DNA of 64,000 bases from a virus (lineage: Duplodnaviria; Caudoviricetes). The stretch is from IMG/VR virus record IMGVR_UViG_3300025858_000010, positions 64,001 through 128,000 of that record; one strand, 5' to 3'. Shown one piece after another: positions 2,008 through 55,078 of the stretch. Both the position numbers and the translations under genes were made by a program. How positions within the stretch are numbered: the first letter of the stretch is position 1; each line of letters opens with the position of its first letter. The notes under the pieces were generated by a model, which did not search any database, was not told the DNA's origin, and saw only the letters and a program-made list of their open reading frames with translations.

Positions 2008-2199
2008 TTACCACTGCTCTTCACCATAAGGATCTTCTTCGTTAATAATTATCTTTGGTAATACGTCTAACACGATTTTTTCGTCTTTAAATCTTTCTAA
2101 CCAATCAGATAATTCGTCTGATTGTAATTTCATATAATCATTATATGAATCTTGAATAACATTATCGAATGATTCGAATAATTTAAACTTGGTTATCAT
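2008..2199 (-). CDS. small DPYGEE-tag protein
   Basis: starts MITKFKLFE, ends EDPYGEEQW. Confidence 0.75.
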   Translation of the reverse strand: MITKFKLFESFDNVIQDSYNDYMKLQSDELSDWLERFKDEKIVLDVLPKIIINEEDPYGEEQW

Positions 2200-2468
2200 A
2201 CTATTTCAAATTTTTTGAATAATTCATTTACTGGAGGAATAGTCATGAATATTTTTTTCAATAAATCTTCTAAATGTTCATATTCATAAATAGAATTGAT
2301 ATTTAATAATTTAAGAAGTTTATCATCTGGTGTAAGAACATATTTTCCGTATTTATTAAACCAAAATACCATTTGATAAATAATATCTTCAATATTTATT
2401 GATAGAAGTATAGCCACTCCATCTTTAATTTTTCCTACATAATCAACAATTGATATACTAACTTCCAT
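2196..2468 (-). CDS. hypothetical protein
   Basis: start reassigned to MEVSIS (2468), removing the overlap with the divergent gene. Confidence 0.55.
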   Translation of the reverse strand: MEVSISIVDYVGKIKDGVAILLSINIEDIIYQMVFWFNKYGKYVLTPDDKLLKLLNINSIYEYEHLEDLLKKIFMTIPPVNELFKKFEIV

Positions 2469-2523
2469 TTTAAGTGTTTGTATTTTTAATATATATATAA
2501 TAAAAAGAAGTTCTATTTTTATT

Positions 2524-2892
2524 ATGGTTTTAGATTTTAAAGATTTATACATAAAGTATGATGGTCATCCTAGATTTCATAGTAATATTATTGTCGAAGA
2601 TGATATAGTCGAAGTAATTGTTCAGAAATTGGAAATGATTTTATTTACAAATAAAGGAGATCTATATGGCGAACCAAATATGGGATGTAATCTTGAATAT
2701 TTTTTGTGGCAAACAAAAGTTCCTGTTCCTGATATTAGAAATTTAATAATGGAACAAATCAACACATATATACCGGAATTAAATGATTTGGAATACTCAT
2801 TCGATATTCAACTATATGAAGGAACATATAGAGATATTTTATATCTTAATTTTATAATAAAGGGATATAATTTCGAAATTTTATTAAAATAA
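2524..2892 (+). CDS. baseplate wedge gp25/GPW-like protein
   Basis: ILFTNKGDLYGEPNMGCNLEYFLW...QINTYIPE resembles the gp25 family signature. Confidence 0.7.
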   Translation: MVLDFKDLYIKYDGHPRFHSNIIVEDDIVEVIVQKLEMILFTNKGDLYGEPNMGCNLEYFLWQTKVPVPDIRNLIMEQINTYIPELNDLEYSFDIQLYEGTYRDILYLNFIIKGYNFEILLK

Positions 2893-2907
2893 TTTAATAT
2901 ATAGGGT

Positions 2908-3387
2908 ATGAATAATATATTTGAATATAAAGAATATGTAAATGAAATGGTTATACTAAATAAACCTAGTGAATCAAAAGATCCAATAGATGGAATTAAA
3001 TTCACAGAAAAAGAAATTAGAATATTGCAAAATAATGAAGCATATCCATTTGATTTGATTGATAAAACTAAAGCTGTCTGTTTAATTTCCGATTTATATA
3101 AAATTAGTATATATAAGAAAAAAAATGATGAATACTTTTCAAGAATTAGAGATATTAGAAAATCTTTCAATCCGGTTATATTTGAAACAACGACAACAAA
3201 TTTGATAGATTGTTTATATATTTTGGATGATTTCATGTGGGAAAAAATTAAAATAGAAAATGAAAAATCCATTTTAGCTAAAAAGTTAGAAAAAGAAAGA
3301 TTAGAAAGAGAAGCTAGAGGGGATAAAGAATATAAAAATAATCATGTTTTTCCATATAAATCTTTTAGTGGAAAATGGAATATGTAA
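2908..3387 (+). CDS. hypothetical protein with FxxYVNE leader
   Basis: MNNIFEYKEYVNE start; TTAATATATA just upstream. Confidence 0.6.
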   Translation: MNNIFEYKEYVNEMVILNKPSESKDPIDGIKFTEKEIRILQNNEAYPFDLIDKTKAVCLISDLYKISIYKKKNDEYFSRIRDIRKSFNPVIFETTTTNLIDCLYILDDFMWEKIKIENEKSILAKKLEKERLEREARGDKEYKNNHVFPYKSFSGKWNM

Positions 3388-6285: not shown

Positions 6286-6287
6286 AT

Positions 6288-12591: not shown

Positions 12592-12990
12592 ATGAAAGAT
12601 AAATTGATTTTTAACGATAAAATAGAAATAAGAAAATCGAAGTTACATGGTTGGGGTGTTTTTGCTAAAAGCGATATAAAATCAGGCGAGATTTTAGAAG
12701 AAGATTCTTTTTTAATAATTCCGATGTCACAGAACGAATCATCTTCAATTTTTATAGATTATAGATTCAATTTTCCAAGAACAAATTCTAAATGTCAAGT
12801 AATACCATTTGGTTTTTCTTGTTTATATAATCATTCAGAAAAACCAAACGCAGCCTGGGAAACAAATGATGAAAATAATTTATTTATTTTTTCTGCGATT
12901 AGAGACATTAAAAAGGATGAAGAAATATGTATTTATTATGGGGATATTAATTATTGGAATGAAGGAAGATCTCACACAAAAATAATTTAA
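12592..12990 (+). CDS. SET-domain methyltransferase-like protein
   Basis: HGWGVFA, YNHSEKPN, RDIKKDEEICIYYG. Confidence 0.9.
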   Translation: MKDKLIFNDKIEIRKSKLHGWGVFAKSDIKSGEILEEDSFLIIPMSQNESSSIFIDYRFNFPRTNSKCQVIPFGFSCLYNHSEKPNAAWETNDENNLFIFSAIRDIKKDEEICIYYGDINYWNEGRSHTKII

Positions 12991-13008: not shown

Positions 13009-15030
13009 TTAAATTTCCCAGTTTTCTTCACCATAAGGATCAATATCCATGTGTTTTAATCTATATTCTTCTTTTTTTTGTTTTATTCTTTTTTGTTCTT
13101 CTTCCCATTTTTCAAATTCATCACCGTCAGCTTTTTTTAAATGATCAAAGCTTATATTATATGATGATCTTGTGTGATCACCATATCCAGTATGTAATTG
13201 AACATTGAATCTATTATCAAATTTAACACAAGCTGAAACATCATCATTAATGCGTGTTATAATACCAATTTCACCTTTAAATAAAATATTGTCCATTCTT
13301 CCATTACATACTACCACATCACCAACATTAAAATAGTCTTTATTTTCGTATATTCTGTTTTCTCTTATCAATAATGAGTCGTCATCTTCCCAAGTTTCTT
13401 CCCCATAAGGGTCAACATCCATATGTTTTAATCTCATTTCCTCTCTAATTTTTTTTCTATATTCTATTTTTTCAGGATCGGTTAATTCTAATAAATAATA
13501 ATAAATATAGTAAGAAGAATTCGTAAAATCGATTCTGTCACAATCCCACAAGTGATTATTGAATCTTTCTGGAAATTTAACTGCCAATAATGGAGAATCA
13601 CTCATTGATAGAATAATACCCACTTCACCATTAAAATAAATATCATCCATTTGTCCGTGGCAAATAACGGAATCACCTATTTGAAAATCATTAATTTCAC
13701 TTTCATTTAAATGTTTGTAGTAATTTGAATTGTAGTCCATATCCCAATCTTCTTCACCGTAAGGATCAATATCCATGTATTTTAATCTCATTTCTTCTCG
13801 TTTCTTTCGTAGTTCAGATATCGGTTTTAATATATTTTTAGAAACAATATATGTATATCCAATACTATGAAATTTGACATCATAATGTATTCCTTTTATA
13901 ACAACTCCATTTACAGTAGAAGATGTATTATTTGAGTGTTTATCGATTATTGTGCCTATTTGACCATTTAGATCAAGACCGCTTTGATTTCCTGTACAAA
14001 TCACTTTATCTCCATTTTTAAAATCATAATCATTTTCGAAGTTCTCATTTAACCAATCTTCTTCGCCATAAGGATCAATATCCATATGTTTTAATCTTAA
14101 TTGTTTTAATCTTTCTTCTTTTCGTTTTTGTTCTTTGGGATCTAATAAATCTAAACAATCTTCTGGAAAGTAATATGAAGATTCATTTAAAAAATAATAA
14201 TTATTATCACGTTTTCTAATAGTGTAACTACGACCAATACAGTCTAACATATTCCGATCCCACCTATTTTTAACAACATGATTTTTTAATTTGTCATTAA
14301 CAACAACCCTATCTCCTATGTTAAATTTATGATTCGAATTTTCGTTAACACTTTCACTTAACCAATCTTCTTCACCATAAGGATCAATATCCATATGTTT
14401 TAATCTCCTTTCCTCTCTAATTTTTTTTCTATATTCTATTTTTTCTGGATCAGCCAATTCTAATAAATGATAATCGATATAGTAAGAAGAATTCGTAATA
14501 TCGATTCCGTTACAGTTCCATAAATGGTTATCAAATCTTTCTGGAAATTTAACTGAAGCATTGAAATGACGCAATGATATAATAATACCTATTTCACCTT
14601 TAAAATAGATATCATCCATTTGTCCGTTACAAATAACAGTATCACCTATTTGAAAATCTTCTATTTTACCTTCATTTAAATAGTGCATTGAATTGTAATC
14701 TTGATCAATCCAGTCTTCTTCACCATAAGGATCAATATCCATATGTTTTAATTTTACTTCTTCTTTTTTAATTTTTGATTCAATTTCTTTGTTTAAATTA
14801 AATAATTTTATTTCATCTTCTACGAACCATATGTTACCACAAAAATATTCAATGACTCTATAATCCGGTAATAAAAAGTTAACTAAACTAACTAAATAAT
14901 AATTTACACCATCGTGTGTATTTATTGTTTTAATTACACCAATTTTATCTACAAGATTTTGTCTTCTATGTCCTTTTTTCACTATAACGACATCGCCAAC
15001 TTTAAAATAATTTGAAAACTTTTTTATCAT
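13009..15030 (-). CDS. six-module SH3/KOW-like + DPYGEEDW polyprotein
   Basis: six FxxGDxV domains, each followed by a charged helix and (H/Y)MD(I/V)DPYGEE(D/T/N)W. Confidence 0.8.
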   Translation of the reverse strand: MIKKFSNYFKVGDVVIVKKGHRRQNLVDKIGVIKTINTHDGVNYYLVSLVNFLLPDYRVIEYFCGNIWFVEDEIKLFNLNKEIESKIKKEEVKLKHMDIDPYGEEDWIDQDYNSMHYLNEGKIEDFQIGDTVICNGQMDDIYFKGEIGIIISLRHFNASVKFPERFDNHLWNCNGIDITNSSYYIDYHLLELADPEKIEYRKKIREERRLKHMDIDPYGEEDWLSESVNENSNHKFNIGDRVVVNDKLKNHVVKNRWDRNMLDCIGRSYTIRKRDNNYYFLNESSYYFPEDCLDLLDPKEQKRKEERLKQLRLKHMDIDPYGEEDWLNENFENDYDFKNGDKVICTGNQSGLDLNGQIGTIIDKHSNNTSSTVNGVVIKGIHYDVKFHSIGYTYIVSKNILKPISELRKKREEMRLKYMDIDPYGEEDWDMDYNSNYYKHLNESEINDFQIGDSVICHGQMDDIYFNGEVGIILSMSDSPLLAVKFPERFNNHLWDCDRIDFTNSSYYIYYYLLELTDPEKIEYRKKIREEMRLKHMDVDPYGEETWEDDDSLLIRENRIYENKDYFNVGDVVVCNGRMDNILFKGEIGIITRINDDVSACVKFDNRFNVQLHTGYGDHTRSSYNISFDHLKKADGDEFEKWEEEQKRIKQKKEEYRLKHMDIDPYGEENWEI

Positions 15031-15074: not shown

Positions 15075-16139
15075 ATGGAAAAATCTGAAATAAAATTAAT
15101 AAACGGTGATATATCAACATTAATAGAAGATCAATATACTAAAATATTAAGAAGCGAAAATTATAACTTTATATTTAATAAACAAACTGGATTTTTCGTT
15201 CGTTGGGGCAAAACAAAGGAAGATGACGGTGACATAAATCTGGGTCTTCCAGAATTAGTAGACATGGAAATATCCACATCATGTCACGGTATAGATAAAC
15301 CTTGTAAATTTTGTTACAAATCAAATACTCCCAAAGGTGATTATATGTCATTTGAAACTTTTAAGAAAATATTTTCAAAACTCCCACCGAGTATAACACA
15401 ATTGGCTGCCGGTATAGGAGATATTGACGGAAATCCCGATATGTGGAAAATATTTAACTATTGTAGGGAAAATGGAGTTATTCCAAATGTGACTATTAAT
15501 GGAGCTAGAATGACGGATGAATTATTTGATAGATTAGCCTTAATGATGGGAGCTGTTGCTGTATCTTTATATGATAAGGATTTAACTTATACCGCTGTTG
15601 AAGAATTGACAAGAAGAGGATTAAAACAAACAAATATACATTTCCTGTTAAGCGAAGAAACATATGATAAAGCTATAGAAACATTGAATGATATTAAAAT
15701 TGATGATAGATTAAAACATCTTAATGCTATAGTTTTTTTATCTCTTAAAACAAAAGGAAATGCTAAAAACGGTTTCACTCAATTAGGTCAAGAAAAATTC
15801 AATAATATTGTTAAATATTCACTCGATAATAATATATCGATTGGTTTTGATAGTTGTGGAAGTACTAAGTTTTTAAAATCGATTGAAGGACATAACAATT
15901 TTAAACAAATGGAAATGTTAGTAGAAAAATGTGAAGCTTCTCTTTATTCAAGTTATATATCAGTTAGTGGACATTATTACCCTTGTAGTTTTTGTGACGG
16001 TGTAGAAAATTGGGAAGAAGGCATAGACGTTTTAAATTGTGAAGATTTTTTAAAGGATGTTTGGTTTAACGAAAAAACATTAAATTTCAAAAAGAAATTA
16101 TTAAATTGTAATCGAGATTGTCCAGTTTACATAATTTAA
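15075..16139 (+). CDS. radical SAM / SPASM-domain protein
   Basis: CHGIDKPCKFCYK cluster motif; C-terminal CEA...G.YYPCSF...CPVY. Confidence 0.8.
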   Translation: MEKSEIKLINGDISTLIEDQYTKILRSENYNFIFNKQTGFFVRWGKTKEDDGDINLGLPELVDMEISTSCHGIDKPCKFCYKSNTPKGDYMSFETFKKIFSKLPPSITQLAAGIGDIDGNPDMWKIFNYCRENGVIPNVTINGARMTDELFDRLALMMGAVAVSLYDKDLTYTAVEELTRRGLKQTNIHFLLSEETYDKAIETLNDIKIDDRLKHLNAIVFLSLKTKGNAKNGFTQLGQEKFNNIVKYSLDNNISIGFDSCGSTKFLKSIEGHNNFKQMEMLVEKCEASLYSSYISVSGHYYPCSFCDGVENWEEGIDVLNCEDFLKDVWFNEKTLNFKKKLLNCNRDCPVYII

Positions 16140-16471: not shown

Positions 16472-16909
16472 ATGATTAAAAATATGAAAATAAGAAATGG
16501 ATTTGTAAGTAACAGTAGTTCGTCTAGTTATATAATTAGAAAAGAAAATTTAACAAATGAACAAATTGATATGATTAAAGATCACATTAATTATTGTTGG
16601 AAATTAATAAACGATGACAATAAAAAAATTGCTTCATTTAGGAAATTTAATGAGGACGATCCATATGGTGAGGAAGAAAACCGGAAAAATGATGAAATAA
16701 ATTATAGTAAAAAAACAACAATTGATAAATTAAAAGAAATGATGGGTGATAATACACCATATAGAATAACAAACACTGATAAATGGGATGTTATAGAAAA
16801 AGATAATGTAATTGAAACCTGTACAGATATGGACAATTTTCCTATGGATTGGTTTTTAACACAAATAGTAAAAGTAGATGAATCTGATATTATTTATAAA
16901 GAATATTAA
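16472..16909 (+). CDS. MKIRNGFVSNSSSSS-family protein with internal DPYGEE
   Basis: N-terminal motif; internal FRKFNEDDPYGEEE. Confidence 0.7.
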   Translation: MIKNMKIRNGFVSNSSSSSYIIRKENLTNEQIDMIKDHINYCWKLINDDNKKIASFRKFNEDDPYGEEENRKNDEINYSKKTTIDKLKEMMGDNTPYRITNTDKWDVIEKDNVIETCTDMDNFPMDWFLTQIVKVDESDIIYKEY

Positions 16910-16928: not shown

Positions 16929-17440
16929 ATGAAAATAAGAAACGGTTTCGTGAGTAACAGTACTATTTTTTATGCTTTTTTTTAATTTGTTTATAAGTTC
17001 ATCAATATATTCATAAGGTATAACTATTTTTCCCTTTTTTTATAGTTACTATAACCACCATGTTTTTCTTGATATAATTTTTGAATTTTATTTAAATTTG
17101 AAAAAATAAAATCTTCAACATTAAAATCTTCAGGAATCAATATCACATAAGTATTTATATGGGTGATAGTTACGAATTCTATTACACTATATCCGATATC
17201 ATGTATGATTTATCAATATGTGGAATTGATACTGGTCCAGACGAAGGTATTATAACTTTTGTCAAAGAAAGAGATTTATTAAGAAAAATTAGAAATATTA
17301 AACAATTACCGGCTAATGATATAGATGAATTAAGAGAGAAAATGAAAAAAGAAAAAGAGGAATACGTTAGAAAAAAAGAAGAAAAAAGATCACATATCAA
17401 AAAAATAGACCCATACGAAGAGGAAGATTGGGAAAAATAA
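16929..17440 (+). pseudogene. second MKIRNGFVSNS-family gene, broken by an internal inversion; C-terminal DPYEEEDW
   Basis: 16961..17153 reads as the missing coding middle on the minus strand; both junctions rejoin in frame when flipped. Confidence 0.75.
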
Positions 17441-38237: not shown

Positions 38238-38443
38238 ATCATTATTTTTTTTATTTTTAAATCATCAATTTGATGTTTTGTATCAAAACCATCATCTTCA
38301 TCTTCATCGTTTTATTTTGATCATTTTCTACGTGATATGATGATAATCCAAATCCAACAAGTTCTTCTAATGTTTTTAATCTTTTCATCTGATTTTTCAA
38401 TTATATCCTTTAATAGTTAAATTATAATCTATTTATCATTAAA

Positions 38444-38845
38444 TCACTTAATTGTTTTTAATTTATTTAATCCCTGGTAAATATTCACAACTCTCGTTTG
38501 GATCGTCACGTAACTTGGTTGAACATTCCAAGACGCACTTTGAGGTCTTTGTGCTAAGGCAGTTAACCATATGATACTTCCAATTTTAATTTCACTTGGA
38601 TTACTTGTCATATTAAATTGTGGTCCGATTATAGCTTCTTCTAATTTAGCAATTCTATCTTTATCGGTTATTATATCGGATACCTGAAGTATCTCAATCG
38701 GACCTTCGACTTTTTCTATATTCCCGTCTTCTAATTCCTTTAAAGCAATAATATCCGAAGATATCGGATCAAATCCTTTTTTAGGATTAAACTCTTTCAC
38801 TTTCTTATTTTTATACTCTTCAAAATCTGTTGTTAAATTAGACAT
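38444..38845 (-). CDS. hypothetical protein
   Basis: ORF track. Confidence 0.55.
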   Translation of the reverse strand: MSNLTTDFEEYKNKKVKEFNPKKGFDPISSDIIALKELEDGNIEKVEGPIEILQVSDIITDKDRIAKLEEAIIGPQFNMTSNPSEIKIGSIIWLTALAQRPQSASWNVQPSYVTIQTRVVNIYQGLNKLKTIK

Positions 38846-38856: not shown

Positions 38857-39198
38857 TTATTTTATATAATTATCTCTTTCATCGTCATACATATCCATTA
38901 ATATTTCTATAACTTTATTTATATTATCGATAAAATCATTTTTTTCTACATTTTTTGGTATGTTTAATCTATATGGTTTCCATCTTCCTTTAAAGGCATA
39001 TTCCTCAGGAGGATCTTCTAAAAACCCGAAATCAGATGGAGCGGACATCTTATAATATCTATGATCTTCTTCTGAAATCTTCCACCCCCTTTTTATTAAT
39101 AATGATAATAAATTATCTAATATTTTTTTATTATCATCCTCCCATATTTCTTCGTCGTAGGGATCTACATCTTTAAAATTCTCGAACTTCTTTATCAT
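38857..39198 (-). CDS. protein with N-terminal DPYDEEIW tag
   Basis: MIKKFENFKDVDPYDEEIW. Confidence 0.65.
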   Translation of the reverse strand: MIKKFENFKDVDPYDEEIWEDDNKKILDNLLSLLIKRGWKISEEDHRYYKMSAPSDFGFLEDPPEEYAFKGRWKPYRLNIPKNVEKNDFIDNINKVIEILMDMYDDERDNYIK

Positions 39199-41741: not shown

Positions 41742-41828
41742 TCACTCTTCTTCGTCACAAGGATCAATATCTTTATGATTATTTTTTTCTTTTACAAATA
41801 TAATAAAATTTTTTAAATTATCACTCAT
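41742..41828 (-). pseudogene. decayed leader+tag minigene (not in ORF track)
   Basis: MSDNLKNFIIFVKEKNNHKDIDPCDEEE*, with TGA where the tag has TGG. Confidence 0.55.
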
Positions 41829-41857
41829 ATTTCTATATATTAAATTAAAATTTAATT

Positions 41858-42157
41858 TTATTCCCATTCTTCTTCACCGTAAGGATCTATATCTTTATAT
41901 TTTTCAGATTTAATCCTTTGGTTCTCTTGAAATTCTTCTTTAGTTTTAGATAGAGAAATTTCCCATATATAACTTAACTGAACTGTATTTTTATTCAATG
42001 ATTCTAAATCATATTTCCACATATTTTGATCATTTGAACAATAATAATTTTTTATCACATAATAACCGTGTGCATTTCTATGCATACCATGATAATATAC
42101 TACATCACCGATTTTATATTTTGATTTATTTTTATTAAATTGTACAAATGTTTTCAT
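41858..42157 (-). CDS. single SH3/KOW-like domain + DPYGEEEW
   Basis: MKTFVQFN..YKIGDVV...KDIDPYGEEEWE. Confidence 0.75.
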   Translation of the reverse strand: MKTFVQFNKNKSKYKIGDVVYYHGMHRNAHGYYVIKNYYCSNDQNMWKYDLESLNKNTVQLSYIWEISLSKTKEEFQENQRIKSEKYKDIDPYGEEEWE

Positions 42158-42160: not shown

Positions 42161-42763
42161 TCATACCTCCCAATTTTCTTCACCGTAAGGGTCTACATCA
42201 GCGTGTGCTGCTAATTGTTGATCTCTTAATAATTTTTTATTCGAATCAGTGATTAAATAAGTATAACCTTTTTTTGTGTGTGTTTGATAAGAATTTATTT
42301 TTCCATTTTCATCATATAAAGTGACACCTTCCATATCGAATTTTTTACCCAATAATCTTAAAATAGATAATGTTTGATTAATTCTAATTAATATATTATT
42401 TAATATTTTTTTTATATTAATGTAAAAAAAATCCGTAAATGGAATAACCTTAAAACATTTTTCAAACACATTCCATTTTTCTTTAATGATGTTAATTTGA
42501 TCTTGTGTAAAATGAAATTTATATTTCATTAGAATTGAAACAAACAATTTACTTATTAAACTCAAATTGATGTAATATTTATTTACTACTTTTGTCAATT
42601 TTTCATTAGATATAATTTCAGCAAATATTTTTCTATTTTCAAAAAATAAAGCATTTAAATGATCAATTCTTTCTTCGAAAGTTTCATTGAAAATTGATTC
42701 ATTTATGTATGTGTCAAAATTTTTCATGTTATTCATACCATTCTTCTTCACCATATGGATCAT
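42161..42763 (-). CDS. DPYGEENW-tag protein
   Basis: likely start MKNFDTYINE; ends DVDPYGEENWEV. Confidence 0.7.
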   Translation of the reverse strand: MIHMVKKNGMNNMKNFDTYINESIFNETFEERIDHLNALFFENRKIFAEIISNEKLTKVVNKYYINLSLISKLFVSILMKYKFHFTQDQINIIKEKWNVFEKCFKVIPFTDFFYINIKKILNNILIRINQTLSILRLLGKKFDMEGVTLYDENGKINSYQTHTKKGYTYLITDSNKKLLRDQQLAAHADVDPYGEENWEV

Positions 42764-43445
42764 TTTCTGTAAATTTTCTAATAGGTTCTACTATTTCGTA
42801 TTCTTGTATAACGTCAGATAATATATCTAAATATGTATCATCATCAACATCTCTAATAGTTAAATTGCTGGTAAATAATTTTTTGTAATTAACGTTAAGT
42901 CTTAGCTTTTTTGCATATTTACCTGTAGTGGATAAAGAATTAGGAACTAACATTATATTATAGAGTTTATTTTTACTGTATATGTCAATTAGCTTATTTT
43001 TATATTTTTCATTTAAATAATCACAAACTTTTTCGACATCTTGCAAATCATCGTATATTTTTTTAATGTCGATTTTATCACCAATTTTTTTTAAAATAAA
43101 ACTACTATTGTTCTCTTTTATCATTTTTTTCTGAGTGTCCTTATCAACATCATCCAAATATTTAGTTTTATTTTTTCTTAATTTATCGATATATCTATTC
43201 TTTCTTATTTTTCTTTTTTTTAATTCTCTATCTTTTCCGAAATAAGGGTCCTGCATAGAAATATCTTGCATGGTTATAACATCAGGTCTTCTATAAGTAG
43301 CTGAATCTGGACCTTTATTAAAAGAAGGTCCTGTGTTTTGATCACCAGATATTCCCATACTTCCATAACCAGTCACATTTCTGTAATCAGTATATTCTTC
43401 GAATGTTTTTAAATTTTTCATCTGGTTTTTATTCATCACACCCAA
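42729..43445 (-). CDS. DPYGEEEW-tag protein
   Basis: MKNLKTFEEY leader, internal MIKE, ends NDPYGEEEWYE. Confidence 0.7.
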   Translation of the reverse strand: MGVMNKNQMKNLKTFEEYTDYRNVTGYGSMGISGDQNTGPSFNKGPDSATYRRPDVITMQDISMQDPYFGKDRELKKRKIRKNRYIDKLRKNKTKYLDDVDKDTQKKMIKENNSSFILKKIGDKIDIKKIYDDLQDVEKVCDYLNEKYKNKLIDIYSKNKLYNIMLVPNSLSTTGKYAKKLRLNVNYKKLFTSNLTIRDVDDDTYLDILSDVIQEYEIVEPIRKFTENDPYGEEEWYE

Positions 43446-45988: not shown

Positions 45989-46011
45989 ATATAAAAAAAG
46001 AATTTTTTTAT

Positions 46012-46028
46012 TTTAATATATATATTAA
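46012..46028. promoter_or_regulatory. example of the TTAATATATA (putative late) promoter, here bidirectional
   Basis: motif recurs closely upstream of structural and leader-bearing genes. Confidence 0.5.
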
Positions 46029-46056
46029 AGTTAGAATTCCAAAAAAAATAATCAAA

Positions 46057-46935
46057 ATGTATATGAATAATCTAATGAATTTTGATGATTTTACTTTAAA
46101 TGAAAAGAATAAACCATCTGAAGGATTAACAAAAGAAAAAAAATCCGATATAGTTAAAAGAGCTAGGAGAGGCGAAGATATTGGTAAGAAAGGAAAAAAC
46201 TTTGAACAATTAAATAGATCGGATATTGATCCATACGGCGAGGAAGATTGGAACGATGATAATGATACACCGATAATACAGTTAGCTAAAGAACAAAATA
46301 AACCATTAGATCAAATAATGTCTTTATATTGTTATTATAATTCATTAACTAGTTTAGAAGGCATTGAACATTTAACTAATTTAGAAACATTAAATTGTTC
46401 TTATAATTCATTAACTAATTTAGAAGGCATTGAACATTTAACTAATTTAGAATTATTAGATTGTTCACGTAATCAATTAACTAATTTAGAAGGAATTGAA
46501 CATTTAACGAATTTAAGAGAATTATATTGTCATTCTAATCAATTAACTAATTTAGAAGGAATTGAACATTTAACGAATTTAGAGATATTATATTGTCATT
46601 CTAATCAATTAACTAGTTTGGAAGGAATTGAACATTTAACTAATTTAAGAGAATTATATTGTCATAATAATCAATTAACTAATTTAGATGGAATTGAACA
46701 TTTAACTAATTTAAGATATTTACATTGTTCGAATAATTCATTAACTAGTTTAGAAGGCATTGAACATTTAACGAATTTAGAATTATTAGATTGTTCACGT
46801 AATCAATTAACTAATTTAGATGGAATTGAACATTTAAAGAATTTACAATATTTATATTGTAATAATAATAGATTTACTGATGAATATAAAAATTATTTAA
46901 AATTAAAAACAAAAATAAAAAATATAATAATATGA
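46057..46935 (+). CDS. leucine-rich repeat protein with DPYGEEDW
   Basis: paralogue of 19613..20302 with more 22-aa repeats and an extra N-terminal segment. Confidence 0.9.
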   Translation: MYMNNLMNFDDFTLNEKNKPSEGLTKEKKSDIVKRARRGEDIGKKGKNFEQLNRSDIDPYGEEDWNDDNDTPIIQLAKEQNKPLDQIMSLYCYYNSLTSLEGIEHLTNLETLNCSYNSLTNLEGIEHLTNLELLDCSRNQLTNLEGIEHLTNLRELYCHSNQLTNLEGIEHLTNLEILYCHSNQLTSLEGIEHLTNLRELYCHNNQLTNLDGIEHLTNLRYLHCSNNSLTSLEGIEHLTNLELLDCSRNQLTNLDGIEHLKNLQYLYCNNNRFTDEYKNYLKLKTKIKNIII

Positions 46936-47687: not shown

Positions 47688-49205
47688 ATGATAGTTGATT
47701 ACGAATATTCTCAGCAAATTTTAAAAGTATCCTATATTGGTGATAATGGTCAAATTAAAATGAAACATTATAGATGGCCAAATCCACAAAAATATGTAGT
47801 TTGCTCGGATGATGATAGAGATAAAAGTGGTAAATATACAACTTGGGATGGTATGGCTTGCAAGTTAACATATACTCGAATGCCAGATCGATATTCAGTT
47901 TATGATTATATTGATAATTTACCACAAGAAGAACAAGATGTTCTTTTTAAATACGTAGAGCCCGAGATTTTTTTTGTTGATATTGAAAATGAAATTTTAG
48001 ATAAAAGACCTCAACCAGAACTAGCAGAAAGTGCTATACAATCTATATCTATTGTGGTTAGAAATAAAGCTCTTGTTATGGGATTAAATGATTTATCAAA
48101 GGAACAAGAAGCATCTATTAGAGAAGATATAAATAATTATTTCGTAAAATTTAATGCGAATTATGATTTTAAATTCATTAAATATCGAAATGAATACGAG
48201 ATGCTATTGAACTTTTTTGAAAAGTATGTTCCAAAAATGCCAGTTATAACTGGTTGGAATTTTACTGAATATGATTGGGTATTTCTCGTTAATAGAGCTA
48301 GAAAAATCGGAGTAGATCCAACATCAGCGTCATATACTAAAATATTAAGACAACCATTTAAAAGAGATAATAAAAATGGTAGACAAAAACAATCATATTG
48401 TGAACAACCAGCTCATAGATTAATTATTGATTATATGGAGCTCTATGAAAAATGGAACTCTACAATTAAAGTTAAAGAATCAAATTCACTAGACTTCGTT
48501 TCCGATGGAATTCTTGGTATTAAAAAAGTCAATTATGAAGGATCTCTTAAAACACTAGTCGTAAACGATTACAAAAAGTTTATATTTTATAATGCAGTAG
48601 ATTCAATTCTAGTTCAGAAAATACACGAAAAAACAAAATGGATTGATATTCTTTATGGAATTGCCACCTTATCTCGAATTAAAATCCTAGACGCTTATTC
48701 AACTCTTCCAGTTACAGAAGGCATATTGAGAAGAAAATTAAAAAAAGAAAGAAATGTTATTCTATGTAAATTGGATAGAGATTTCTCAGATAATAATACA
48801 ATAATGGAATCAGAGAAAACCGTTAAAGGAGGATGGGTCAAAGAACCTATAAAAGGAATGGCATTATGGACTGCTTGCTATGATTTCTCGTCCCTTTATC
48901 CAACGTGTATGAGGATGTTTAATATTTCGGCAGATTCTTATAAAGGTATTTTGTCTCCGGGTAAAGATTTTGCAATCTTTAATGGACATAGGGTTGATTT
49001 AGATTCTAATGATATTAAATTATTAAATGGTTCTGTTTTTAAAAATGAGGTCGGTGTAGTTAATCAAGTGATGACAGATATTTTTGCTGACAGAAAGAAA
49101 TATAAGGGATTTATGATGAAAGAACACGATGAATTAGAGTCATATAAAAGAGAGCTTAGAAGTGCTGAAGATGAGCTTTTGTTGGAATTAGAACATATTG
49201 ATTAA
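47688..49205 (+). CDS. family B DNA polymerase, N-terminal part (exonuclease + motif A)
   Basis: VDIE, ITGWNFTEYD, YNAVD, GGWVKEP, YDFSSLYP; lacks KxxxNSxYG and YGDTDS. Confidence 0.85.
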   Translation: MIVDYEYSQQILKVSYIGDNGQIKMKHYRWPNPQKYVVCSDDDRDKSGKYTTWDGMACKLTYTRMPDRYSVYDYIDNLPQEEQDVLFKYVEPEIFFVDIENEILDKRPQPELAESAIQSISIVVRNKALVMGLNDLSKEQEASIREDINNYFVKFNANYDFKFIKYRNEYEMLLNFFEKYVPKMPVITGWNFTEYDWVFLVNRARKIGVDPTSASYTKILRQPFKRDNKNGRQKQSYCEQPAHRLIIDYMELYEKWNSTIKVKESNSLDFVSDGILGIKKVNYEGSLKTLVVNDYKKFIFYNAVDSILVQKIHEKTKWIDILYGIATLSRIKILDAYSTLPVTEGILRRKLKKERNVILCKLDRDFSDNNTIMESEKTVKGGWVKEPIKGMALWTACYDFSSLYPTCMRMFNISADSYKGILSPGKDFAIFNGHRVDLDSNDIKLLNGSVFKNEVGVVNQVMTDIFADRKKYKGFMMKEHDELESYKRELRSAEDELLLELEHID

Positions 49206-49219
49206 AAATATTCTTTTAA

Positions 49220-50989
49220 ATGATATTAACTAAAAATTCAAATGTTACTATAACTTCGAGAAATATGGGTTATTATATTAATTACTTTAATGATATTAAA
49301 ATAAATGATGTAATAAACGTTGATATAAATATTTTACATAAAGGAAGTAATTTAAAGATTAATGTATGTTGTGATAATTGTGGACAAGAAAAGGAAGTGT
49401 CTTATGTCAAGTATAATAATTATATAAAGGATGATGGTAAATATTACTGTAAAGATTGTAAATGGATAAAATATAAAGAAACAAATATAAAAAGATACGG
49501 AGTAACAAATCCATTAAAAAAAATGGAACTAAAAGAAAAAATAAAAAAATCTCTTATAGATAAATATGGTGTTGATAATCCAATGAAAGATAAAAATATA
49601 AAAGAAAAAGTAAAAAATACAATAAATGAAAAATATGGAGTTGACAACGTTTTTCAAAATGATGAAATAAAAGAAAAAATAAAAAATACGAATTTATTAA
49701 AATATGGGATTGAAAGTCATAATAAAAATGAAAAAATTAAAGAACATAAAAAAAATACATATTTAAAAAATTTTGGATATGAAAATGTTTTTTCATCTCC
49801 TGAAATAATAGATAAAATTAAAGAAATATTAATAGATAAATATGGTGTTGATAATATTTTTAAAAATGGTATAATTAGAGATAAATTTATAAATGAAAAC
49901 AAAATAAAATGGTTTAATGAAATTAAAAATAAATATAAAAATTTAAATTTTATTAATGCAGATTTTGTTAAAAAAGAATTTCAAATTAATTGTGATAAAG
50001 GGCATACTTTCAATATAACTTTTAATTTATTTTATAACAGAAATAGAGAAAATTGCAAAACTGAAATTTGTACTATTTGCAATCCAATAGATAAACAAGA
50101 GTCCGGTTTGGAAATTCAAATTAGAGATTTTATAAAAGAAAATTATGATGGTATAATAGAATTAAACAATAATATTATTATAAATCCATATGAGATAGAT
50201 ATTTATTTACCAGAATTAAAAATTGGATTTGAATTCAATGGTCTTTATTGGCATTCGGAGATTTATAAAGACAAAAATTATCATATAAATAAAACAAATA
50301 TATCGGAATCAAAAGAAATAAAATTAATTCAAATATATGAAGATGATTGGTTATATAAACAAGATATAGTTAAATCCAGAATACTAAATTTGCTAGGCAA
50401 ATCTAATAAGATAATGGCTAGAAAAACTGAAATTAAAGAATTTAATGACACTAAAATGATAAAAGATTTCTTGGATAAAAATCATATTCAAGGACACGTT
50501 GGATCAAAAATTAAAATAGGACTTTTTTATGAAAATAAATTGGTTTCTTTAATGACATTTGGTGATAAAAGAAAATTAATGGGTCAGAAATCAGTAGTCG
50601 GAACTTATGAAATGTTAAGATTTTGCAATATATTAAATACTAATGTTATCGGCGGAGCTAGTCGATTATTTAAATATTTCGTCGATAAATATAATCCCAA
50701 TGTTGTTATAAGTTACGCTGATCGCAGTTGGTCTAATGGCAATCTTTATAAAAAAATAGGATTTGATTTTATAAGAAAAACAGAACCTAATTATTATTAT
50801 ATAATAAACGGAAAAAGAAAACATAGATTTGTATTCAGAAAAGATAAATTAATTAAAGATGGTGCCGACCCATCAAAAACAGAACATGAAATAATGTTAG
50901 AAAAAAATATTTATAGAATATATGATTCTGGTCATTTAAAATTTATTTGGAAAAATAATAAAAAAACAAACCTCACAGAAAAAAATTGA
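49220..50989 (+). CDS. KYGV-repeat PD-(D/E)XK endonuclease with C-terminal GNAT/Mom-like domain
   Basis: CDNCG, KYGVDNP repeats, EIDIYLPELKIGFEFNGLYWH, RFCN..GGAS, SYADRSWS. Confidence 0.7.
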   Translation: MILTKNSNVTITSRNMGYYINYFNDIKINDVINVDINILHKGSNLKINVCCDNCGQEKEVSYVKYNNYIKDDGKYYCKDCKWIKYKETNIKRYGVTNPLKKMELKEKIKKSLIDKYGVDNPMKDKNIKEKVKNTINEKYGVDNVFQNDEIKEKIKNTNLLKYGIESHNKNEKIKEHKKNTYLKNFGYENVFSSPEIIDKIKEILIDKYGVDNIFKNGIIRDKFINENKIKWFNEIKNKYKNLNFINADFVKKEFQINCDKGHTFNITFNLFYNRNRENCKTEICTICNPIDKQESGLEIQIRDFIKENYDGIIELNNNIIINPYEIDIYLPELKIGFEFNGLYWHSEIYKDKNYHINKTNISESKEIKLIQIYEDDWLYKQDIVKSRILNLLGKSNKIMARKTEIKEFNDTKMIKDFLDKNHIQGHVGSKIKIGLFYENKLVSLMTFGDKRKLMGQKSVVGTYEMLRFCNILNTNVIGGASRLFKYFVDKYNPNVVISYADRSWSNGNLYKKIGFDFIRKTEPNYYYIINGKRKHRFVFRKDKLIKDGADPSKTEHEIMLEKNIYRIYDSGHLKFIWKNNKKTNLTEKN

Positions 50990-52030: not shown

Positions 52031-52558
52031 ATGAATAAAGAATTCCATAATAATCAACAAGTCTATATTTTTTTAGATCTAGACGGTGTTTTAGTGACCA
52101 CCAATCAGTATTATACTAATAGGAAAAAATGGCATCCCATGTATGATTGCTACAGGTTTGATGAAAAATGTGTAAAGGTTTTTAATCAAATTCTTGATGA
52201 AGCAATGCTATCAAAAAAACCAATCGTTGTATTATCAAGTGATTGGGGTAAGAAATATTCATTGGAAGTAATGAATAGAATATTTGAGTGGAATAATGTT
52301 AAATGCACTATAACAGATATAACTCCGAATCTTTGGGGAATTGAATTTATGAAAGTTCAAGAACTGGAAGCTTGTCGTGCGTCTGAAATCATAAAATATG
52401 TGTGTGATAACAATGTACAGAAATTCATAGTCATTGATGATTACGATTTGAATCCTTGGTTTGAAGCGAATTTTATTCACATAAAACGCGCTAATGAGGG
52501 AATTAAACAATTGGGCATAAAAGAAAAAATCATTAAATTTTTAAAAGAACACTGTTAA
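52031..52558 (+). CDS. HAD-family phosphatase (RNA-repair HAD type)
   Basis: FLDLDGVL, VLSSDW, R..EI, VIDD. Confidence 0.75.
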   Translation: MNKEFHNNQQVYIFLDLDGVLVTTNQYYTNRKKWHPMYDCYRFDEKCVKVFNQILDEAMLSKKPIVVLSSDWGKKYSLEVMNRIFEWNNVKCTITDITPNLWGIEFMKVQELEACRASEIIKYVCDNNVQKFIVIDDYDLNPWFEANFIHIKRANEGIKQLGIKEKIIKFLKEHC

Positions 52559-52662
52559 AAATAAATTTTCATTGGATTATTTTAATATATAATGAAAATT
52601 AAAAATTAAAAAGATTTATTTTTTTTTTTAATTTTTAATAATAATTTTTTATATATAATAAT

Positions 52663-54063
52663 ATGAAAATATTAAGATATAATAATTTTTTTAAGGAAAA
52701 TGTACAACCTTTTACTGGTGATGAAGAAGTTCAACTACAACCAGAAGAAGATAAATTGAACATTGATCAATATAACCAATTGAGATTATGGGATATTGAT
52801 GATGATAGCTTTAAGACAGAAGATGAAAAGAAAAGGGATTTGAAAGTAAAAAAAATTCATGATGATTTAATTAAAAAAATAAAAAAAGAACCAAAGGTTG
52901 AAGAAGTAAGACAGCCAACACCTATAGAAATTGGTGATTGGGTAGAAATTTTTGATTTTAACGATTTGAATAAAAATCAAAAAAAGTTTTTAAAATCCAA
53001 ACCCTATCATTACGTCAAAGCAGTCACTAATAGTAAAGGCAATATATATGAAGTCGGTGATCCACATATTGATATTGGATATAAAATTCCATTTAAAATG
53101 TGTAGATTTAAAAAAACAGAAAAACCGGATAGTAAATATAAAGTACTTTTTATTCAATTCGATTTGGCTATAGATACACATGGTGAAAAAGATGTCTATA
53201 ATTTTTTTAGAGGATTTGAAAATATGTCCGGATTATTTCCAGTTTTATTTTATGAAAAAATGAAAGATGATGTTTTTGTTAATTTTGTTAATTATGATGA
53301 TATTTATAAAATAAAAAAAGATTATTATGCACATGGTATTTGTTTGAAAGATTACAATTTTGTATTTTTTGGACACGTATCAAATTTCACATCTTTGTGT
53401 AAAATGATTGTTAATTATCTAAATAGAAATGATATTCCTTATTTAAAATATGGTACTTATAGTGAATATGATAATAAGGCTTATGAATTTGATCTTTTAG
53501 AAAATTTAGGATATCCATATATACCATCAATAATGACTACTAAATTAACAAATAAAATAATCAGTATAGTTGAAAATGACTTTGGATTCCCAGTTATTGT
53601 CAAAGATGTTAAAGCAAATAGAGGTACTGGCGTTTTCTTGATCAAAGATTTGAAAAACTTAATCAAAACTTTTTCACATAGATATTCTTCCAATTTGATG
53701 TTGATACAAAAATTCATACCAAACGATGGGGATTATAGGGTTATAACAATAAAAAATAAAGTTGAATTGATAATAAAGAAAAAAAGAATAGACGAAAAAG
53801 AATTTAGATCTAATGTGGCTAGAGGGGCAAAGGCTATAAAAGGAAAATTACCATCTAATATCATTAAAATGTGTGAAGATGTATCTAAACATTTAGACAG
53901 TGATATTTTAGGATTTGACATAATACAGAATAAAAATACAAAGGAATATTACATAATGGAGGTTAATTCGGCTTCACATTTCTCTACCTTTTCTGTTATA
54001 TCGGGTGTCAATATTCCAGAAATAATAGTTAATTATATTATTAAAAAAATCAAAAATAATTAA
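52663..54063 (+). CDS. RimK-like ATP-grasp ligase with N-terminal extension
   Basis: FPVIVK...GTGVFL, IQKFI...DYRV, FRSNVARG, GFDII, MEVNS. Confidence 0.85.
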   Translation: MKILRYNNFFKENVQPFTGDEEVQLQPEEDKLNIDQYNQLRLWDIDDDSFKTEDEKKRDLKVKKIHDDLIKKIKKEPKVEEVRQPTPIEIGDWVEIFDFNDLNKNQKKFLKSKPYHYVKAVTNSKGNIYEVGDPHIDIGYKIPFKMCRFKKTEKPDSKYKVLFIQFDLAIDTHGEKDVYNFFRGFENMSGLFPVLFYEKMKDDVFVNFVNYDDIYKIKKDYYAHGICLKDYNFVFFGHVSNFTSLCKMIVNYLNRNDIPYLKYGTYSEYDNKAYEFDLLENLGYPYIPSIMTTKLTNKIISIVENDFGFPVIVKDVKANRGTGVFLIKDLKNLIKTFSHRYSSNLMLIQKFIPNDGDYRVITIKNKVELIIKKKRIDEKEFRSNVARGAKAIKGKLPSNIIKMCEDVSKHLDSDILGFDIIQNKNTKEYYIMEVNSASHFSTFSVISGVNIPEIIVNYIIKKIKNN

Positions 54064-54064
54064 A

Positions 54065-55078
54065 ATGTATTCATTTAAAAAATATAAAAATTTTTTAAAC
54101 GAAAATAATTATTTGACATTTGATGATCTCGTTTTTAAATATCATCCACAACTGAATACAGAATTTGATAAAATAAACTTCAATAACGGATATGTTCTAT
54201 CGGTATTTAGACTCGATGATAAATATCTACCGGGAAGTGAATATAGTATGTTCTATTTTGATCATGAGAAAAGTAAATACATTCTACTATTTTCATCTAA
54301 AGAAGAAGTTAGTGAAAAAATGATTGAACTTCAAAAAAGAAAAGAAAAAAAGAGAATATTTACTACCGAAGATCCTTATGGCGAAGAAGATTGGAATAAC
54401 GAAAATATAGTTCAGAAAAAAAAGATAAAATATAAAAATTTTTTAAACGAAAATAATTATTTGACATTTGATGATCTCGTTTTTAAAGATCATCCATATG
54501 TAGACGATGTAAAAATTGCCAAAATGGATTTCGATAATGGTTATAGTGTATCTTTATTATTTGGTGAAAAAGTGTATTCAAACTCTAAAGACACATACGA
54601 AATGATGTGTTTTGATTACAGAGGAGAAAATATTTACGATGATGTGTTACCATATTTAACTAAAGATCAAGTTAGTGAAAAAATGATTGAACTTCAAAAA
54701 AGAAAAGAAAAAAAGAGAATATTTACTGCCGAAGATCCTTATGGCGAAGAAGATTGGAATGATGATGATAATATTTCAGAAAATTTAGATCAAAAAGAAA
54801 AAATCACCACGGTACAATTATGGAATGAATATTTACGCAAAGGCAGGAAATATGTGATGGATAAATTAAGATATAGAGATATTGAATTTGTAACAAAATC
54901 AAAAAAAGTTAAAAAATACAAAGGTAAAATATGTGGTTTTGTTCCTGCTTTTTTGTATTCAGATAAAGAAATAATAATTCTTTTCGATACCAAAGAATAT
55001 GGAGTTTTAAAAGTTAATGATAAATATCCAATTATTCTAAATCCAAAAAGTGAATACGAGGACGAAGACGATGAATAA
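54065..55078 (+). CDS. two-module DPYGEEDW protein plus C-terminal domain
   Basis: duplicated KYKNFLNENNYLTFDDLVFK...EDPYGEEDWN. Confidence 0.75.
   Translation: MYSFKKYKNFLNENNYLTFDDLVFKYHPQLNTEFDKINFNNGYVLSVFRLDDKYLPGSEYSMFYFDHEKSKYILLFSSKEEVSEKMIELQKRKEKKRIFTTEDPYGEEDWNNENIVQKKKIKYKNFLNENNYLTFDDLVFKDHPYVDDVKIAKMDFDNGYSVSLLFGEKVYSNSKDTYEMMCFDYRGENIYDDVLPYLTKDQVSEKMIELQKRKEKKRIFTAEDPYGEEDWNDDDNISENLDQKEKITTVQLWNEYLRKGRKYVMDKLRYRDIEFVTKSKKVKKYKGKICGFVPAFLYSDKEIIILFDTKEYGVLKVNDKYPIILNPKSEYEDEDDE

Follow-up and report, generated by a model that had tools for sequence, protein, structure and literature searches.

In this study, we analysed a 64,000-nucleotide stretch (the window) of a virus genome, positions 64,001 to 128,000 of the IMG/VR record IMGVR_UViG_3300025858_000010, and found that about one in eight proteins of this 243-kb relative of the largest known phage carries the same eight-residue acidic peptide, DPYxEExW. 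The contig (26% GC, rated complete) represents a T4-like phage, and its capsid protein is 85% identical to that of the 735-kb phage LR756501. Our analyses suggested that the peptide is a lineage-specific address or docking label. The observation behind the original prediction, that many unrelated proteins share this tag, was confirmed. Its interpretation, a short linear motif docking many cargo proteins onto one partner, was supported only in part, since the motif and its selection at the protein level were established, while no partner (reader) was identified.

Copies of the motif in the window and their carriers

A six-frame search with the pattern DP[YFW].E..W revealed 18 intact copies in the window, all of which read DPY.EE.W, together with two decayed ones. 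The most frequent form is D[IVL]DPYGEE[DEN]W. The intact copies lie in the ORFs originally named, although three entries of that list (about 20 copies in 14 ORFs) required correction. ORF 16472-16909 holds only a degenerate copy, DDPYGEEEN, in which the W is lost (DPYGEEEN at 16658-16681, plus strand). The copy assigned to 41742 is truncated, DIDPCDEEE followed by a stop (DPCDEEE at 41745-41765, minus strand), at the end of the 41-aa ORF 41742-41867. The copy assigned to 35623 (35635-35658, minus strand) is an orphan in a 15-codon mini-ORF (MKDIDPYGEENWDDD) that follows a short leader ORF ending at TAG and lying in another frame, which represents a decayed locus.

The coordinates below run from the D to the W of each tag, with the D codon at the higher position on the minus strand. 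The largest carrier in the window is a 673-aa six-module polyprotein (13009-15030, minus strand), in which each module comprises a small beta-barrel, a K/R/E-rich helix and the tag, with tags at 14710-14733, 14362-14385, 14053-14076, 13744-13767, 13390-13413 and 13018-13041; Pfam SH3_13 scored only 1e-5 on it, below its cut-off. C-terminal tags were found on the minus strand at 2011-2034 in the 63-aa ORF 2008-2199, which has the leader MITKFKLFE, at 41864-41887 in the 99-aa single-module protein ORF 41858-42157, at 42170-42193 in ORF 42161-42763, and at 42738-42761 in ORF 42729-43445, and on the plus strand at 17408-17431 (DPYEEEDW) in the 93-aa ORF 17159-17440. N-terminal tags were found on the minus strand at 20231-20254, right after the leader MIKNFRIFE of the LRR protein ORF 19613-20302, and at 39142-39165 (DPYDEEIW), after the leader MIKKFENF of ORF 38857-39198. 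The remaining copies, all on the plus strand, comprise an internal tag (DPYDEENW) at 33860-33883 in ORF 33434-33991, which is kept in the orthologue of the 735-kb phage, a tag at 46228-46251, residue 58 of the LRR protein ORF 46057-46935, which has an N-terminal extension, and two tags at 54371-54394 and 54734-54757 in a 337-aa two-module carrier (54065-55078), where the first tag is followed by a copy of the protein's own leader, KKYKNFLNE.

Structure predictions were obtained for two carriers. In the AlphaFold2 model of the LRR protein ORF 19613-20302, the one confidently folded carrier, residues 1-18 and 20-27 have pLDDT under 50 while the LRR body is at 84-99, so that the tag lies in a low-confidence, probably flexible N-terminal extension. 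The model of the 99-aa protein ORF 41858-42157 (mean pLDDT 64) showed strands at 19-69, a helix at 73-88 and the tag as coil.

Distribution and conservation of the tag

The whole contig holds 47 copies, of which 45 lie in 37 of 288 greedy ORFs, whereas twenty mononucleotide shuffles gave none, and PYGEE occurs in 29 proteins against 0.03 expected. Of these 45 copies, 14 are C-terminal (within 5 residues of the end), 12 N-terminal and 19 internal, and the original description of the tag as usually C-terminal is therefore only partly right. About 105 copies were found in LR756501, but none in the huge phages LR745206, LR756502, LR756500 and Lak-B5 or in two complete IMG/VR relatives (hereafter G001 and G002). 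Many multi-copy AT-rich IMG/VR contigs carry the tag as well, and 199 significant representative proteins were found worldwide, with up to 12 tags in one protein. In contrast, 185,579 cellular genomes gave only chance-level single hits. No description of the motif was found in the searched literature or in Pfam.

Carriers are unrelated to each other, including LRR proteins and small beta-barrel modules, and in LR756501 a CCA-adding enzyme, a GNAT, a deaminase, a methyltransferase and pieces of structural proteins. Orthologues of this phage and LR756501 share 31-63% identity overall, yet tag columns were identical in 64/72 cases (89%), flanks within 20 residues in 85/241 (35%) and the rest in 42%. 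Among the 15 reciprocal-best pairs in which either partner is tagged, 11 are tagged in both. Synonymous variation was observed at every degenerate codon position, as originally claimed, and selection acts on the protein. However, codon choice is biased towards CCT, TAC and GGT compared with genome usage (TAC 37% against 14% genome-wide here; 75% against 36% in LR756501), which shows that copies also share descent, and part of the uniformity could be historical. Lineage-wide changes were also found: the sub-lineage G004 has DPW in place of DPY, and LR756501 prefers L and this phage I/V just before the tag.

Leaders, cleavage-type sites and the inferred role in the prohead

Carriers are enriched for leaders resembling the T4 capsid-targeting sequence (CTS), with 20/37 against 40/251 in this phage (p = 1e-6) and 37/87 against 146/916 in LR756501 (p = 4e-8), an odds ratio of 4-6. 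The T4 CTS, MKTYQEFIAE, is cleaved off and suffices for encapsidation (PMC3012670; bioRxiv 10.1101/2021.01.19.427310). Beside the gene of the gp23-like major capsid protein (61543-63300, minus strand), which dates the lineage and was a candidate docking surface, lies that of an 808-aa prohead protease-scaffold fusion, whose 3' part occupies 63379-64000 (minus strand) and which runs beyond the window. This protein has a gp21-like protease domain and about 13 tandem repeats of YSEYIAE-type units, and the repeats, of 14 residues, resemble the carriers' leaders and the T4 CTS. In addition, internal tags are followed by protease-type [LIVM]xE sites within 12 residues in 156/321 cases against an 18% background (p = 1e-35), with 17/43 in LR756501 and 8/19 here, although this enrichment is uncorrected for the Glu-rich stretch that follows the tags. 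LR756501 also has a stand-alone protease-domain paralogue in which a C-terminal tag replaces the scaffold part, a scaffold-repeat protein with a tag, and tagged pieces of capsid, portal and sheath proteins.

In our best reading, DPYxEExW is a portable docking peptide at flexible ends of proteins or of polyprotein modules, in which six side chains (D, P, Y, E, E, W) are held invariant while the bodies of the carriers evolve fast, the signature of one common reader that binds the peptide. The best-supported setting is the prohead, where the tag is most likely used to load or hold accessory proteins. In this view, many carriers start with a leader that looks like one unit of the tandem repeat in the protease-scaffold fusion; polyproteins of body-helix-tag modules would be cut by the gp21-like protease at [LIVM]xE just behind the tag, which would then lie near the new C-terminus, as it does in single-module proteins; the tag would hold, sort or present these accessory proteins inside the head, or hand them to a co-packaged enzyme; and they would later be delivered to the host with the DNA. 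The analysis itself established the motif, its clade limits, selection at the protein level, the low-confidence setting in one carrier and the statistical links to leaders and cleavage-type sites, whereas binding, the reader, packaging, cleavage and each step of this scheme are inferred. A functional docking motif with a common reader is probable, but the prohead setting as stated remains tentative.

Several results do not favour the prohead setting. The link to the capsid is statistical only, and no reader was identified. By the regex, 17 of 37 carriers here lack a leader (about 9 of 37 by eye) and 50 of 87 in LR756501, and some sit in arrays of small leaderless genes. The tag is strongly acidic, whereas T4 internal proteins are basic. 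Tagless sister phages have the same capsid, portal and protease-scaffold genes, and a reader in the head would therefore have to be a clade-specific change; the one clade-variable head feature found, an SH3-like insert in the scaffold, is also present in two complete tagless genomes. Furthermore, carriers are not enriched for the late-type promoter motif (7/37 against 60/251).

Alternative readings and comparable systems

Among the alternatives, two are considered unlikely. A RimK/LysX-family ATP-grasp ligase (52663-54063, plus strand), which is specific to the tag lineage, carries a CTS-like leader and lies next to a carrier gene, is a candidate reader or writer, and might bind the tag and add glutamate or another amino acid to a Glu in or next to it, as with the EDWGE tail of LysW/ArgW or the Glu-Glu end of ribosomal protein S6. 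Its ATP-grasp domain is of RimK type (Pfam RimK 1e-23; NCBIfam rimK_fam 3.5e-30, LysX_arch 2e-21), residues 157-270 match the RimK pre-ATP-grasp domain, and its closest solved relatives are alpha-L-glutamate ligases, RimK and the ArgX/LysW complex entry 3VPB. The ligase is present here and in LR756501 (60% identity) but absent from LR745206, LR756502, LR756500, Lak-B5, G001 and G002, and in this phage, LR756501 and three of the five IMG/VR loci, including the DPW-variant lineage, a tag or variant tag lies within about 2 kb of its gene. The tag and the C-terminal tail of the amino-group carrier proteins LysW/ArgW are both acidic, with Glu-Glu/Asp-Trp-(Gly)-Glu. LysW/ArgW end in EDWGE, for example APELEEDWGE, and LysX/ArgX ligate onto the last Glu (PMC10433800); tags often read PYGEEDWGE or EEDW.E, Gly is the second commonest residue after W in the world-wide set (74/321), and cleavage after [LIVM]xE would leave a C-terminal Glu. 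However, the ligase is one of 74 well-conserved non-carrier genes that the two tag-bearing phages share and the two sister genomes compared lack, it lacks the C-terminal GSWGR motif with which LysX/ArgX read EDWGE (PMC10433800), and its N-terminal extra domain shows no profile similarity to the barrel modules. Only about a quarter of natural C-terminal tags end in Glu, the invariant D, P and Y have no counterpart in LysW, which is one small zinc-finger carrier with an obligatory last Glu whereas about 37-87 unrelated proteins per genome carry the tag, and RimK-like genes occur in phages without this tag (PHROG 2599). A plain host-takeover role on S6 is possible. The tag might instead dock proteins onto a hub outside the virion, either a phage-made assembly or replication compartment, built from multivalent tag-reader contacts with the multi-tag polyproteins as scaffolds, or an abundant host protein. 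The leaderless carriers, the up to 12 tags per protein in world-wide relatives and 15 in a 13-kb locus, a multivalency typical of scaffolds, and the expansion of small beta-barrel modules, a fold class that often reads peptides (18 domains here and 33 in LR756501, against 0 in LR756502 and 5 in 400 kb of G001), are consistent with this reading, and sister lineages put a different C-terminal tag, R[DK]xK[IL]xx[IL], on leaderless small proteins. Nevertheless, no reader is known, barrel modules also occur in a tagless genome, the fold of a barrel-helix-tag protein (pLDDT 64) did not place the tag confidently on the barrel, and the originally suggested host hub has no positive support, since cellular genomes hold only chance-level copies and mimicry of a host motif is not indicated.

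Other readings appear very unlikely. A self-contained cap that ends a helix (Asp-Pro, a turn, then Trp packing back), or self-association of carriers, would fit the predicted or likely helix, either a basic helix or the leader, that the tag nearly always follows and the upstream preferences for L at -6, an aromatic or basic residue at -4 and I/V/L at -1; but the upstream helices are unrelated in sequence while six tag residues never change in about 150 copies, the tag has low model confidence in both folds, and a tagless LRR paralogue folds from the same leader without the cassette. A degradation or timing signal, read by a protease or an adaptor so that accessory proteins are removed at a set time, might be suggested by the position of the tag at or near protein ends, by the non-polar ends of the sister-clade tags, as in many C-terminal degrons, and by a retropepsin-like protease gene beside a 12-tag polyprotein in a metagenomic relative. 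Yet the ends are acidic, unlike known bacterial C-degrons of ssrA and MuA type, the tag also occurs internally and near N-termini, and the retropepsin-like gene is absent from this genome. The possibility of a by-product of DNA-level spread, through a recombination hot spot or a selfish in-frame insert with no function for the peptide, is remote: the codon bias, the remnants and orphan copies, and chimeric ORFs made of pieces of structural genes are in its favour, but all degenerate sites vary while the six residues never do, flanking DNA and protein are not conserved, no palindrome or repeat structure goes with the tag, and decayed copies lose the motif quickly, which shows that intact ones are maintained.

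Comparison with described systems revealed partial parallels. Acidic C-terminal tails of single-strand-binding proteins (SSB DDDIPF, T7 gp2.5) and clamp-binding peptides, the analogy originally proposed, are likewise acidic peptides with an aromatic residue acting as a shared docking handle, but there one protein's tail binds many partners, whereas here many proteins share one tail and the free C-terminal residue is not conserved. Cargo-loading peptides of encapsulins and the C-terminal capsid-targeting tail of the HK97 prohead protease are short, mostly C-terminal peptides on a flexible linker that load diverse cargo into an HK97-fold shell, and the tagged stand-alone protease paralogue of LR756501 parallels the latter; their sequence differs, binding of the tag to the capsid protein has not been shown, and the tag also occurs near N-termini and up to 12 times in one protein. 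The CTS of the T4 internal proteins IPI-III and Alt is, like the tag, a short portable peptide shared by otherwise unrelated accessory proteins of a T4-like phage and linked to a gp21-type prohead protease; however, the CTS is N-terminal, amphipathic, ends in a cleavage site and is removed, while the tag is acidic and aromatic, lies mostly at C-terminal or module ends, has no resemblance to it in sequence and appears to stay on the protein.

Distribution and conservation of the DPYGEExW tag

The single 243,112-bp contig (26% G+C), of which bases 64001-128000 form the window, is rated complete by the CheckV estimate of IMG/VR and belongs to a T4-like phage. It encodes a gp23-like capsid protein, a split family-B DNA polymerase with homing endonucleases, a GluRS/GlnRS-like synthetase, a CCA-adding enzyme and a RimK-like ligase. 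Its capsid protein is 85% identical to that of LR756501/LR756503, the 735-kb 'uncultured phage', about 50% identical to those of the 634-642-kb genomes and 28% identical to those of the Lak phages. These belong to the Mahaphage clade, whose predicted hosts are Bacteroidetes (PMC7162821).

A six-frame search for DP[YFW].E..W found 18 copies in the window, all of which read DPY.EE.W and lie in the sense frame of the ORFs named in the original prediction. Its observation of a shared peptide tag held and is far beyond chance. Two further copies are decayed, as that at 16658-16681 has lost the W and that at 41745-41765 is truncated, and one intact copy, at 35635-35658, is an orphan mini-ORF in a locus where a leader ORF ends at TAG in another frame. 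The whole contig has 47 copies, 45 of which lie in 37 of 288 ORFs, whereas 20 shuffles gave none, and PYGEE was the most over-represented pentapeptide of the proteome (29 proteins against 0.03 expected). Positions D, P, Y, E, E and W are invariant, position 4 is G in 35 of 45 copies, the residue before the tag is mostly I or V, and the residues after it are mostly D, E or N. Fourteen of the 45 copies here and 41 of 102 in LR756501 lie within 5 residues of the C-terminus, and the others are N-terminal or internal (12 and 19, respectively, in this phage).

The DNA pattern occurs 105 times in LR756501 but was not found in LR745206, LR756502, LR756500 or Lak-B5, nor in two complete IMG/VR relatives of 676 and 640 kb (hereafter G001 and G002). 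A scan of IMG/VR returned at least 94 stretches, nearly all of 22-33% G+C and many with several copies, up to 15 in 13 kb, and a profile of the C-terminal tag found 199 significant representatives among 1.84 billion proteins, the best hits being polyproteins with up to 12 tags. In contrast, the pattern gave 72 single hits in 185,579 bacterial and archaeal species genomes, where about 70 were expected by chance according to our own estimate, and no genome held several copies. The motif is therefore a hallmark of one phage lineage, with capsid identity of about 78% or more, and is not a cellular motif. A side branch of that lineage (G004, 86 kb) has only a few copies, which are the variants DDPWGEENY, DDPWCEENW and EDPFGEDSW, and a related contig has EDPWSEEIW.

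Every degenerate codon position in the tag varies, so the constraint is on the peptide. Codon usage is nevertheless skewed: TAC makes up 37% of Tyr codons in tags against 14% genome-wide here, and 75% against 36% in LR756501, and CCT and GGT are raised too, which indicates that copies also share descent or a codon preference. Among 176 reciprocal-best pairs with LR756501, 11 carry the tag in both partners, 3 only here and 1 only there. In ten of those 11 both-tagged pairs, aligned pairwise, tag columns were identical at 64/72 positions, flanks within 20 residues at 85/241 and the rest at 685/1648. In addition, the LRR carrier at 19613-20302 folds confidently in the predicted model, with pLDDT 84-99 from about residue 41, while residues 1-18 and 20-27, the leader and the tag, stay below 50, and a tagless LRR paralogue goes straight from the leader into the first repeat. 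An AlphaFold2 model of the 99-aa barrel-helix-tag protein had strands at 19-69, a helix at 73-88 and the tag as coil, but its pLDDT of only 64 was too weak to say whether the tag touches the barrel.

These properties fit a short linear motif in the general sense, namely 3-10 conserved residues in a disordered region, forming an island of conservation and occurring convergently on unrelated proteins, although its link to a binding partner is inferred. The tag does not fit a selfish in-frame repeat of the Rickettsia palindromic element type, which is conserved as DNA more than as protein, longer than 100 bp and palindromic, since only 24 nt are conserved, third codon positions vary and the flanks are unrelated. 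EF-hand or dockerin calcium loops, 2A skipping peptides, PDZ ligands and the TolB box were considered and dropped because the patterns do not fit. A PDB sequence search with a tag segment gave only spurious HIV matrix hits at E of about 0.1, a Protein Atlas look-up yielded nothing useful, and a tblastn search of the phage collection with a 45-residue segment gave no match, probably because the query is short and filtered. A literature search for DPYGEE returned only unrelated papers, and the tag was not found described in the libraries searched.

Carriers, leaders and the prohead

Carriers in this phage are LRR paralogues (Pfam LRR_4), small beta-barrel modules (a weak SH3_13 hit) and many unknowns. 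In LR756501 they also include a CCA-adding enzyme fused to four tag modules, a GNAT, a deaminase, a methyltransferase and a phosphoribosyltransferase. The same genome (loci numbered L100-L136 here) has small ORFs made of pieces of structural proteins fused to the tag: a prohead protease-domain paralogue, a portal clip piece, two capsid pieces, a sheath C-terminal piece and scaffold repeats. Our contig has a 66-aa portal-piece protein with the tag at 157155-157355. No core structural or replication protein of this phage carries the tag, and carriers evolve fast, as only 2 of 37 have any hit in LR756502. The CCA-adding enzyme of this phage (window 23811-25256, plus strand) starts with the leader MIKKFKLFE, which resembles the T4 capsid targeting sequence (CTS), and its LR756501 orthologue is fused behind four tag-bearing modules in a 1179-aa protein.

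Many proteins of this phage begin with a leader such as MIKNFKIFE, MKNLKTFEEY or MNNIKRYEEFVNE, resembling the T4 CTS MKTYQEFIAE, which is cut off by the prohead protease and suffices for loading (PMC3012670; bioRxiv 10.1101/2021.01.19.427310). A simple regex found such leaders in 20/37 carriers against 40/251 other proteins (p = 1e-6), and in 37/87 against 146/916 in LR756501 (p = 4e-8). The T4-type sequence is N-terminal, about 10 residues long, amphipathic and ends in an L/I-x-E site cut by the prohead protease. The carriers' leaders fit this description, whereas the tag, which is C-terminal, internal or behind a leader and is acidic, does not.

The gene beside the capsid gene (window 63379-64000, minus strand, continuing to contig position 129805; 382-2805 of locus L170) encodes an 808-aa fusion of a gp21-like prohead protease (residues 1-224) to a scaffold, with a run of about 13 tandem repeats of 14 residues (YSEYIAEnlDKsI), each ending in a protease-type site, followed by an acidic Q-rich linker, an SH3-like insert and a C-terminal domain. 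The linker and the insert are present or absent by clade. The repeats resemble the T4 CTS, and the leaders look like one repeat unit. Internal tags were followed within 12 residues by [LIVM]xE, the T4-type site, in 156/321 world-wide cases against an 18% background, in 17/43 in LR756501 and in 8/19 here, figures that are not corrected for the Glu-rich context, whereas a leader-like regex after internal tags was not above background. In the two-module carrier of the window the first tag is followed by a copy of the protein's own leader. Together, these points suggest units of leader, body and tag, which the prohead protease would separate, leaving the tag near a new C-terminus.

We further found that the motif TTAATATATAA (core AATATATA) lies in 67 of 288 upstream regions against 5 expected, for example at window 63301-63340 and 45989-46030. 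It precedes the capsid, protease-scaffold, portal and large tail genes and is probably the late promoter, but the tag showed no association with its core.

Candidate readers and sister-lineage tags

The scaffold's SH3-like insert is missing in tagless LR756502 but present in tagless G001 and G002, which breaks its co-occurrence with the tag. Barrel modules are expanded in the tag lineage but are not strictly clade-specific, as a few also occur in G001. One complex prediction of the capsid protein (53-row alignment) with a 45-residue C-terminal tag segment (13 rows) gave a score of 0.00, which counts neither for nor against binding to the inner face of the shell as in encapsulin-type or HK97-type cargo loading. 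The phage encodes its own DnaJ and DnaK (window 21592-22629, minus strand, and contig 36938-38818, plus strand), and in both tag-bearing phages the DnaK gene is flanked by tag carriers, one of which, in LR756501, is a DnaJ-zinc-finger-like protein. However, the two chaperones were rejected as the reader, since both are present in tagless clades too and the DnaK tail is of the ordinary EEVK type. A retropepsin-like aspartic protease gene (135 aa) lies directly beside a 1537-aa polyprotein with 12 tags in metagenomic relatives (loci L358/L359), but no homologue was found in this contig.

There remain 74 well-conserved non-carrier genes that the two tag-bearing phages share and that LR756502 and the first 400 kb of G001 lack. 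One of them stands out, a RimK/LysX-family ATP-grasp ligase (52663-54063) with a leader of its own, which is absent from six tagless genomes and, in most lineages where it was found, lies next to a tag-bearing gene. It has the ATP-grasp domain plus the RimK pre-ATP-grasp domain of RimK-family alpha-L-glutamate ligases: Pfam RimK scored above its cut-off (84.3 against 21 bits), NCBIfam rimK_fam scored 105 bits, below its 143-bit cut-off, and structural matches cover residues 157-270. Its N-terminal extra domain is not supported as a barrel module (hhalign probability 0.3%). Enzymes of this family act on acidic C-terminal tails. RimK acts on the Glu-Glu end of S6. LysX/ArgX act on the EDWGE end of LysW/ArgW, for example APELEEDWGE, where the last Glu is the ligation point (PMC10433800). 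Many tags read PYGEEDWGE or EEDW.E, but the tails after W are varied (E, EN, NE, D, DD, EK, EI and others), only about a quarter end in Glu, and the ligase sequence has no C-terminal GSWGR motif, with which LysX/ArgX read EDWGE (PMC10433800). We keep the ligase as the most concrete rival explanation.

Sister huge phages without DPYGEExW carry a different abundant C-terminal tag. LR756502 (loci L137-L169) has RDxK[IL]xx[IL] on 65 proteins and the first 400 kb of G001 (loci L256-L275) has RKxKIxx[IL] on 67, whereas this phage has none and LR756501 has two. Those carriers are mostly small leaderless proteins, often in tandem arrays, and are not enriched for leaders, so the two tag types may not be equivalent or do the same job. 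Nor was positional equivalence on homologous bodies supported, because carriers are not homologous between clades and the one shared capsid-fragment body has its tags at different places. G001 has a capsid piece with its own RKxKI tag. The mutually exclusive pattern still suggests that lineage-specific terminal tags are a general habit of these phages.

The reading of the tag as a peptide that docks many proteins onto one partner was partly supported, that is, as far as sequence analysis can go and with no partner identified among the candidates examined. What the analysis establishes is the motif itself, its restriction to one lineage and its constraint as a peptide, while binding to a reader, loading into the head and cleavage behind the tag are inferred. 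A bolder possibility, which we regard as less likely than not but not excluded, is that huge phages of the Mahaphage group run lineage-specific peptide address systems, in which each lineage would mark 7-13% of its proteins with its own terminal tag: DPYGEExW in this lineage, DPWxEExW in a sub-lineage, and RDxK[IL]xx[IL] or RKxKIxx[IL] in sister lineages. In this view, a dedicated reader, here possibly the RimK/LysX-like ligase or the expanded beta-barrel modules, would sort, pack or modify this large and fast-evolving accessory proteome, which would amount to a virus-encoded protein-sorting code with multi-tag polyproteins as multivalent scaffolds.

Most genes of the largest phages have no known function, and one peptide that marks a tenth of the proteome groups about a hundred unknown proteins per genome into a single functional class, besides offering a direct experimental handle through peptide pull-down, reporter fusions and mass spectrometry of protein termini. 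If the tag is a loading or docking signal, it would show how giant capsids take up many accessory proteins and could also serve to load foreign proteins; if it is the handle of a RimK/LysX-like ligase, it would be the first proteome-wide substrate set for that enzyme family in a virus. The different tags of sister lineages suggest a general, evolving sorting code in huge phages.

Other features of the genome

ARAGORN called a tRNA with anticodon CTA, an amber suppressor type, at window 19105-19179 (minus strand), and one decayed tag locus has a leader ORF that ends at TAG. The six-module polyprotein is flanked by a 132-aa SET-domain protein (window 12592-12990, plus strand; Pfam 2.3e-15) and a radical-SAM protein (window 15075-16139, plus strand), the former being 72% identical in LR756501 and absent from the sister genomes compared. 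In addition, several large homing-endonuclease-like genes (DUF7487 plus a Mom-like domain; PHROG 3339/559) lie in and around the split polymerase and the capsid genes (window 47688-50989, 57561-61388).
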